Virus record (IMG/VR): IMGVR_UViG_3300035696_000017
Location: 1-64,000 of that record
Direction: 5' to 3' (one strand)
Source of the DNA: a virus
Length of the DNA stretch: 64,000 nucleotides
In this document: in pieces, positions 41,553 to 42,066 of the stretch
Position numbering within the stretch: position 1 is the first letter of the stretch
Layout: the number at the start of each line of letters is the position of its first letter
The notes under the pieces: generated by a model
Told to the model about the DNA's origin: nothing
Database searches by the model: none
Seen by the model: only the letters and a program-made list of their open reading frames with translations
Translations under genes and position numbers: made by a program

Positions 41553-41641
41553 ACCGTTCACCTACTGCACAGGATTCGAACCTGACTGCCCACCTTCGAG
41601 GGGTGGTGCTCTTCCGACGAGCTCGCGAATGGTTACTAGGT
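41553..41641 (-). ncRNA. Loop-E-clamped tRNA-like RNA, copy 2
   Basis: ACC-T-AGTA-ACC [D arm, CCACC-CCTCGAA-GGTGG, CAGG-TTCGAAT-CCTG] GGT-GAA-C-GGT. Confidence 0.7.
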
Positions 41642-41716
41642 TGGAGCGGGCGGCGGGATTCGAACCCGCGTGTCCAGGCTGGCGACCTGGTGCCTGTGCC
41701 TCTCGGCCACACCCGC
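41642..41716 (-). tRNA. tRNA-Gly(GCC), second copy, C33
   Basis: CCAGG-TCGCCAG-CCTGG, CCA. Confidence 0.82.
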
Positions 41717-41719
41717 GTA

Positions 41720-41841
41720 CGTCTTTCACTTCCGGTCTGACGGGATTCGAACCCGCACGCTCTTGCGAGCAGCCGGTTTTCTGCCGGCCGTGTCTACCAT
41801 TCCACCACAGCTGCCCGTTTCATGGGCGTAGTTACTTGACG
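41720..41841 (-). ncRNA. Loop-E-clamped tRNA-like RNA, copy 3 (Leu-type body)
   Basis: CGTC-A-AGTA-ACT [..GTGGAATGGTAGACAC, GCCGG-CAGAAAA-CCGGC, V arm, T arm] AGT-GAA-A-GACG. Confidence 0.7.
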
Positions 41842-41843
41842 GG

Positions 41844-41916
41844 AGCTAGCCACGGGAGTCGAACCCGTCATCTCGTCCGTACCAAGGACGCGTGTTCCCA
41901 CGCCTACTCGGCTAGC
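41844..41916 (-). tRNA. tRNA-Thr(GGT)
   Basis: TT-GGT-AC; divergent D arm. Confidence 0.78.
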
Positions 41917-41920
41917 GTTT

Positions 41921-42066
41921 CGTTTTCACCTGCATGGGACTCGAACCCACAAGGCCTACTGCGATACCCCGTCACCGGGAGCACTCGGCCAGGCTCGTTT
42001 TTTTAGACGTGCCGCGTATGCCATTCCGCCACCCAGGAAGCGCCCGGGGTCACATGGTTACTCACG
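41921..42066 (-). ncRNA. Loop-E-clamped tRNA-like RNA, copy 4 (Leu-type body, giant V arm)
   Basis: CGT-G-AGTA-ACC [..GGCGGAATGGCATACGC.. GTGGG-TTCGAGT-CCCAT] GGT-GAA-A-ACG. Confidence 0.7.

Follow-up and report, generated by a model that had tools for sequence, protein, structure and literature searches.

The window analyzed here is the first 64 kb of a 114,053-bp IMG/VR virus record (G000; GC content ~60%, CheckV completeness 31%). It contains 35 tRNA genes, out of 58 in the whole record, and all of them lie on the minus strand. A class-A RNase P RNA gene (39985-40339, minus strand; 276.6 bits), complete in that it covers positions 1-367 of the bacterial class-A model, is wedged flush between tRNA-Leu(cag) and tRNA-Arg(tcg). 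The tRNA arrays are flanked by two genes of the RNA-ligase family (PF09414; 25477-26184 and 50639-51499, both minus strand) and by an ATP-dependent DNA ligase gene (54312-55751, minus strand). Four of the spacers between tRNAs called by ARAGORN and Rfam are filled by elements that a first-pass annotation had described as beginning at the 3' ends of tRNAs, and both this placement and the boundaries it gave are borne out, with all four elements on the minus strand: Cys-C-Thr(ggu), Thr(ggu)-B-Gly(gcc), Gly(gcc)-A-Thr(ugu) and Gly(ucc)-D-Gly(ccc). In the following list P1 denotes the outer stem of an element and R1 a covariance model described below.

42066-42141, minus strand: tRNA-Cys(GCA), directly upstream of element C; the 3' end of the tRNA sets the 5' end of C
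41921-42066, minus strand: element C; P1 CGU/ACG, 5' core AGUAACC at 42056-42062, 3' core GGUGAA at 41925-41930, R1 match at 41918-42069
41842-41916, minus strand: tRNA-Thr(GGU), 4 nt downstream of C and directly upstream of B
41720-41841, minus strand: element B; P1 CGUC/GACG, 5' core AGUAACU at 41830-41836, 3' core AGUGAA at 41725-41730
41642-41716, minus strand: tRNA-Gly(GCC), 3 nt downstream of B and directly upstream of A; CCA is encoded and P1 follows it
41553-41641, minus strand: element A; P1 ACC/GGU, 5' core AGUAACC at 41631-41637, 3' core GGUGAA at 41557-41562, R1 score 24.1 bits
41476-41549, minus strand: tRNA-Thr(UGU), 3 nt downstream of A
28076-28156, minus strand: tRNA-Gly(UCC), directly upstream of D
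28017-28076, minus strand: element D; P1 CGC/GCG, 5' core AGUAACC at 28066-28072, 3' core GGUGAA at 28021-28026, R1 score 41.6 bits
27941-28013, minus strand: tRNA-Gly(CCC), 3 nt downstream of D

All four elements are closed at their termini by the same structure, which we refer to as the clamp. From the ends inward it consists of P1, one non-Watson-Crick position, an internal loop of AGUA opposite GAA, the 3-bp helix P2 (ACY/RGU) and, inside P2, conserved unpaired bases (R on the 5' strand and G-N-A on the 3' strand). Together these form a nearly invariant core of 17 nt, 5'-AGUAACY-R / G-N-A-RGUGAA-3', bounded by the variable P1. The stems quoted in the first-pass annotation had been read correctly: the outer ones are CGC/GCG, ACC/GGU, CGUC/GACG and CGU/ACG, and P2 is ACC/GGU in three elements and ACU/AGU in element B. 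The string AGTAACYA occurs at exactly four sites in the 64 kb, all within the elements, compared with 0.69 expected, and none of 100 shuffled sequences reached four. Two more copies lie in the record beyond the window, on the same strand. The fifth (G000:C1:67207-67315, minus strand, equivalent to L005:1406-1514) has P1 GUUGC/GCAAC. The sixth (G000:C1 ~67586-67691, minus strand) is a variant with P1 GAC/GUC, P2 ACA/UGU and a multi-hairpin body, and its orthologue in the related genome G003 (L043 ~18380-18500, minus strand) retains the loop CAGUGAA while the stems change in a compensatory manner.

Pattern scans of IMG/VR, followed by pattern and script scans of the matched records, identified ~50 copies in at least 12 other contigs, 39 of the copies being anchored to a tRNA; copies with an upstream T-loop or an insert length not covered by the patterns escape these scans. 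The carriers include G003, a complete 369-kb genome with terminal repeats and at least 11 copies, the 309-kb genome G002, the 340-kb contig L087 and a stretch, L163, with at least seven copies in 12.5 kb. Their GC contents range from 0.47 to 0.62, and a single genome holds up to a dozen copies. In G003, the strict pattern matched eight times on the tRNA strand compared with once for a reversed-pattern control. The covariance model R1 was built from 18 short copies, one of which is a Bacillus phage look-alike that was subsequently rejected (see below) and that also stayed among the 49 copies used for the statistics, with negligible effect. This model produced 52 matches in 372 kb of array-bearing loci, on the tRNA strand in all but one marginal case (E = 0.8), and none in the 329 kb of G003 outside its tRNA array.

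The arrays of all carriers are homologous and follow one order, Glu-Pro-Val-Pro...Phe-Cys-[clamp]-Thr...Thr-His-Glu-Leu... in one part and ...Ser-Gly(gcc)-[clamp]-Gly(ucc)-[clamp]-Gly(ccc) in the second. The clamp family is therefore confined to one clade of huge phages and is not universal among phages, and because all carriers belong to this clade, a co-occurrence analysis cannot indicate a partner protein. Placement relative to the tRNAs is tightly constrained. The AGUA begins 4-11 nt past the discriminator base in all 36 of the tRNA-anchored copies compared, P1 starts 0-3 nt past the encoded part of the tRNA 3' end (C, CC or CCA), which it incorporates in some copies, and the 3' end of the clamp mostly lies 3-12 nt before the next tRNA, with a few copies lacking a downstream tRNA. 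A clamp follows ~12% of the tRNAs in carrier arrays.

The conservation of the clamp was quantified in 49 curated copies. The 5' core reads A (47/49), then G-U-A-A-C-Y, then R (41/49), and the 3' core reads G (39/49), N, A (47/49), then R-G-U-G-A-A. P2 is paired in every copy, with the third pair seen as C-G, U-A, U-G and once A-U; we found no third helix in a fixed register inside P2 among the copies. P1, by contrast with the core, is 2-8 bp long and has 47 distinct sequences in the 49 copies. Its pairing is nevertheless retained: cognate flanks form 4.4 bp on average, compared with 2.2 bp for a 5' flank combined with the 3' flank of a different copy, and the tally of 196 Watson-Crick and 20 G-U pairs suggests that P1 pairs as RNA, in the same sense as the tRNAs. 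The covariation score was 0.509, compared with 0.158 for shuffled alignments (none of 500 reached the observed value) and at most 0.12 for slid controls. The alignment behind this score was fitted to the covariance model, and the independent flank-swapping test agrees with it. Each of the four inner P1 pairs is represented by at least four pair types. The combination of a covarying terminal stem with a bulged-G-type module, as put forward in the first-pass annotation, is thus supported.

Within the internal loop, all 49 copies have the G, the U and the final A of AGUA, 47 have the first A and 48 the opposing GAA, and the Watson-Crick helix lies 3' of AGUA and 5' of GAA. The loop thus matches a bulged-G (loop E or S-turn) module in both sequence and polarity, from which we infer an S-turn geometry. 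Bulged-G S-turns are classic protein-binding platforms.

The segments enclosed by the clamp, which we call bodies, are diverse. The window elements A, B and C do show D, anticodon and T arms, and describing them as tRNA-shaped bodies without an acceptor was accurate, as were the readings of their degenerate anticodon-like loops (CCUCGAA, CAGAAAA and CUAAAAAA). The body of A is a cloverleaf core, recovered as a cloverleaf in the minimum-energy fold, with D arm GCUC/GAGC, anticodon-like arm CCACC-CCUCGAA-GGUGG, T arm CAGG-UUCGAAU-CCUG and an acceptor-like helix of only 3 bp. Element B has an extra 5' hairpin in addition to its D, anticodon-like (loop CAGAAAA) and T arms, and the Rfam tRNA model (RF00005) scores it at 31.9 bits over positions 5-66 only, the acceptor stem being missing. 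Element C, too, resembles a tRNA; its variable arm is long, and it has a loop of 8-9 nt rich in A. The Rfam tRNA model reported neither A nor C, ARAGORN called a tRNA in none of the window elements, and none of them combines the full cloverleaf, 7-bp acceptor stem, discriminator and CCA end that define membership of the tRNA family; C74 is absent from them. The body of D is a single irregular hairpin with no likeness to a tRNA, and this hairpin is retained in the G003 orthologue through compensatory changes.

Across the family, a tRNA shape is not the defining trait, although the first-pass annotation had named the family for it, and element D is already a case in point. A T-loop-like GTTCRANTC is present in only 19 of the 49 bodies, the others being plain hairpins or multi-hairpin structures, so that bodies range from nearly complete, acceptor-defective tRNA shapes through degenerate ones to plain hairpins. 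The clamp, not the tRNA shape, is the family-defining module, and the tRNA shape is probably the ancestral one among several cargoes. In the tRNA-like bodies, the D, anticodon-like and T helices are kept by compensatory changes. Between G000 and G003, the stems of D, A and the sixth copy change in this way at a sequence identity of only 57-83%; the bodies are thus under structural selection. The anticodon-like triplet, on the other hand, varies among orthologues (UCG, UCC, CUG, UGU and others), and the loops of classes B and C are rich in A and 7-9 nt long. When isolated elements were submitted to ARAGORN, it called six tRNAs among the 49 (Thr UGU, Lys UUU, Leu UAA), with anticodon loops of the canonical 7 nt; the top of the acceptor stem has two mismatches in each of the six, and C74 is missing from all of them.

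Beyond the partial tRNA match of element B, no family in Rfam 15 matched the elements at E values up to 10, consistent with the earlier view that they represent an undescribed RNA class; they are neither YrlA RNAs nor tRNAs. The proposed analogy to Y RNAs holds for the overall layout. Like the clamp RNAs, YrlA and Y RNAs pair their 5' and 3' ends into a handle stem and occur in phages too (Chen et al. 2014, PMC4201824), and YrlA shares with A, B and C a tRNA-like module that has D and T arms and no chargeable acceptor end. The analogy fails in the particulars. The YrlA model (RF02553, gathering score 69 bits) gave 14.8 bits on A, and its best score in the record, 26.4 bits, fell on ordinary tRNAs. 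No TROVE/Ro gene (PF05731) was found in the 114-kb record, which is only ~31% of the genome. The Ro-binding motif of YrlA resembles GGUCCGA on the 5' strand of the terminal stem (PMC4201824), and such a site is absent from the clamp stems, which have AGUAACY instead. The clamp RNAs further differ from YrlA in that their handle is AGUAACY/RGUGAA, most members have no tRNA-like module, and their genes lie within tRNA arrays rather than next to rsr.

The clamp also bears a likeness to the sarcin-ricin loop (SRL), with AGUA opposite GAA, the right polarity with respect to the Watson-Crick helix and a non-canonical N-N pair on the other side, and class A copies additionally share the SRL flanks CC-N-AGUA / GAA-C-GG. 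Unlike the SRL, the clamp module is internal, with a helix on either side, and sits at the ends of a small RNA, and AGUA is followed by ACY and a body rather than by the GAGA tetraloop, which is the part of the SRL targeted by sarcin, ricin and VapC20. Moreover, the clamp keeps the neighboring A-U and C-G pairs as well as the flanking R / G-N-A invariant, something that a generic bulged-G motif can do without. The suggestion that the elements mimic the SRL thus depended on one copy class, and it does not extend to a family that has no GAGA tetraloop and whose P1 changes from almost every copy to the next.

Two further comparisons concern genomic setting and architecture. Phage T4 encodes, within its tRNA cluster, the small stable RNAs species 1 and 2 (rnaC and rnaD), whose function is unknown. 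Like the clamp RNAs, they are encoded directly after a tRNA; they are co-processed with tRNAs, and one has a T-arm-like hairpin. The AGUAAC...GGUGAA clamp is absent from the T4 region 70908-71171, and no homology to rnaC or rnaD was detectable. Box C/D RNAs offer an analogy in architecture only, their family being defined by a terminal helix next to a conserved non-Watson-Crick module while the interior varies; the clamp differs in being of S-turn rather than K-turn type, in its bacterial phage setting and in having no guide function. A full-text literature search found no description of the clamp motif. Thus, acceptor-less tRNA mimics on a handle and small RNAs inside phage tRNA clusters are kinds of RNA already known, and an S-turn terminal clamp common to otherwise unrelated bodies is new.

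We read the elements as genes for a family of structured small RNAs that lie within the polycistronic tRNA array of a huge-phage clade. Since each starts 1-3 nt past the discriminator base of an upstream tRNA, or past the C, CC or CCA encoded there, and usually ends 3-12 nt before the next, ordinary tRNA-processing enzymes would release it: the 5' end would be freed by RNase Z or by 3' trimming of the upstream tRNA, and the 3' end by RNase P acting on the downstream tRNA. The RNase P RNA gene and other noncoding RNA genes lie flush between tRNAs in the same array, so release between flanking tRNAs looks like a general route by which this phage produces noncoding RNAs. A reading that we consider quite possible, if still short of probable, is that RNase Z and RNase P liberate the elements as stable small RNAs, in which the clamp is a putative end-protecting or protein-binding handle for interchangeable bodies. 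The product would be a discrete RNA with both ends paired in P1, and the invariant S-turn module could be a shared handle that shields these ends from exonucleases. Such a handle would most likely bind one common protein, comparable to the terminal stem and K-turn of box C/D RNAs or the Ro-binding stem of Y RNAs, and the body would supply the specific activity, with tRNA-shaped bodies engaging enzymes that recognize the tRNA elbow. Other conserved spacers of the array have closing stems without an S-turn, which indicates that a closing stem alone suffices for the needs of a spacer. The invariance of the core, together with the invariant A-U and C-G pairs and R / G-N-A, exceeds those needs and thus argues for a specific partner or a tertiary role.

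A bolder version of this reading, which we regard as doubtful on balance, is that the S-turn clamp is the handle of new phage ribonucleoproteins, or of stabilized and possibly circularized RNAs, whose bodies titrate or redirect host enzymes that recognize the tRNA shape during infection. Candidate targets would be RNase P, modification enzymes, the CCA-adding enzyme and tRNA-directed defense nucleases. If this were true, a phage that brings its own RNase P RNA, ~60 tRNAs and RNA ligases would also produce bodies that include uncleavable, unchargeable tRNA look-alikes.

The most serious competitor to the stable-RNA reading, although we judge it unlikely, is that the clamp acts in cis as a processing or insulator module that exists only in the precursor, looping out the spacer and being degraded after processing, the bodies having no function in trans. 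Such a module would bring the 3' and 5' ends of neighboring tRNAs together and prevent mispairing between spacer and tRNA. It would explain why clamps are found solely inside arrays, strictly right after a tRNA and mostly right before another, and it is in keeping with the closing stems of other array spacers. A 17-nt core that is invariant across GC contents of 0.47-0.62 is, however, needless for mere closure of a spacer, the compensatory changes that keep the body helices indicate that the bodies are selected in their own right, and many array tRNAs that are 0-12 nt apart, or separated by long spacers, are clamp-free. Less probable again is the proposal that the RNAs are decoys or sponges for host defense nucleases directed at tRNAs or ribosomes (anticodon nucleases, VapC-type or ribotoxin-type enzymes). 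The unchargeable tRNA-shaped bodies, the RNA-ligase-family proteins typical of tRNA repair and the one copy class with SRL-like flanks (CC-N-AGUA/GAA-C-GG) would fit decoys; against them, more than half of the bodies are not tRNA-like, the actual target within the SRL, the GAGA tetraloop, is absent, and the P1 flanks differ in almost every copy. The anticodon-nuclease decoy put forward in the first-pass annotation is a poor fit in particular, given that the anticodon-like triplets are not conserved among orthologues.

Two other explanations take the ends of the elements differently, and we give little credence to either. In one, the elements are genuine tRNA precursors with paired leader and trailer, so that the bodies mature into decoding tRNAs and the clamp is discarded. 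The intact D and T arms and the canonical 7-nt anticodon loops of the six ARAGORN calls point in this direction, but in each of those calls two positions at the top of the acceptor stem are mismatched, and C74, which directly follows the discriminator base in 291 of 296 bona fide tRNA genes (G000, G002-G005, L019 and L023), is missing. The window copies have only ~3 acceptor pairs, with an Rfam match limited to positions 5-66, some loops are 8-9 nt long or have A33 or C33, and most bodies are not tRNAs at all. In the other, of similarly low probability, the clamp would be a ligation platform that juxtaposes the 5'-phosphate left by RNase Z and the 3'-OH left by RNase P for circularization by a phage RNA ligase, as a functional analogue of the bulge-helix-bulge in permuted and split tRNAs of archaea and algae. 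Both ends do lie within one helix and two PF09414 genes flank the arrays, but the overhangs vary (0-3 nt at the 5' end and 3-12 nt at the 3' end) and tRNA repair adequately explains phage RNA ligases. Nor is the motif a bulge-helix-bulge. In that structure a 4-bp helix separates two 3-nt bulges, one on each strand; on reading, the 3-bp helix of the clamp has a loop of 5 nt / 4 nt on one side and one of 1 nt / 3 nt on the other. Finally, the notion that the clamp is a chance motif in decaying tRNA pseudogenes is scarcely credible: some bodies do resemble degraded tRNAs, but the enrichment, the strong covariation, the conservation across divergent genomes and the absence of the motif elsewhere in the 369-kb genome refute it.

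To our knowledge, the non-tRNA content of huge-phage tRNA arrays is almost unexplored, even though huge phages carry dozens of tRNAs and translation-related genes. With ~50 copies, an invariant 17-nt core and a heavily covarying closing stem, the clamp family is among the better-supported new structured RNA classes that sequence alone can provide. One handle shared by many bodies suggests a general phage way to make and stabilize small RNAs by means of host tRNA-processing enzymes. Y RNAs were the first case in which tRNA mimics lacking an acceptor are attached to a conserved stem; the family adds a second one, independent of them, and the clamp is small enough for direct tests.

Several other motifs and candidate members were considered and rejected. 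By reading, the clamp does not correspond to a K-turn, a hammerhead core, loop B of the hairpin ribozyme, a bulge-helix-bulge, an integron attC site or the 11-nt tetraloop receptor, nor to a T-loop or double T-loop (as in RNase P J11/12-J12/13 and the T-box distal region), and a CCA/L15 mimic was discarded because P2 varies (ACU, ACA). Bacterial members were not substantiated: a 596-Gb pattern scan gave 57 matches, those in Borrelia being ordinary tRNA-Trp genes, and about four had a P1 of at least 3 bp, which is about the number expected by chance. Low-GC viral matches in L015, L017 and the G001 record are likewise attributed to chance, control counts being similar.

The look-alike noted above occurs in the Bacillus phages phiNIT1, SPG24, BSP10 and SBSphiJ as GUU-A-AGUAACCA[37]AGGUGAA-A-AAC right after tRNA-Asp, in a scan for which ~0.6 chance matches were expected. 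It was rejected because in Goe3, BSP38, BM-P1, Goe17 and BvP the tRNA is absent, P1 is unpaired and the 5' motif becomes AGUAGCC, and its GGUGAA is part of a local hairpin that covaries (GAGGU/ACCUC, GAAGG/CCUUC, GUGAGG/CCUUCAC) and precedes a small ORF. The proteins that phiNIT1 and G003 have in common are only ThyA, PhoH, DnaB, UvsX and a sigma factor. The Bacillus segment is unrelated to the clamp family and is an observation in its own right. An invariant RNA segment, CAUAUCGGACUGUCUCG.UCUCUGCGGGGAGAA, is followed by the covarying hairpin and by the Shine-Dalgarno sequence and AUG of a tiny ORF. It is present at L098:6036-6170 (phiNIT1 35580-35710) and in 40 related records from Nitunavirus, Grisebachstrassevirus and Jeonjuvirus, including the model phage SBSphiJ.

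The tRNA arrays yielded some additional observations. A full CCA is encoded in only about one third of the 296 tRNA genes, and with C74 present in nearly all of them this partial encoding of the 3' end is unusually uniform. Apart from the arrays, ARAGORN called a tRNA-like gene with an irregular 2-nt anticodon at 48786-48857 (minus strand). Certain clamp-free spacers between tRNAs are also conserved between G000 and G003 (43657-43845, minus strand, 78% identity over 189 nt; G000:C1:65274-65353, minus strand, 86% over 80 nt) and probably hold further structured RNAs of the array. In G003, the orthologue (L043 ~16781-16856, minus strand) of the G000 tRNA-Trp(CCA) gene (G000:C1:66515-66589) has the anticodon CUA, and G002 has a tRNA with the anticodon UUA (L047 ~18775-18850); these two tRNAs might suppress stop codons, a hint, if so, of recoding among relatives of this phage.
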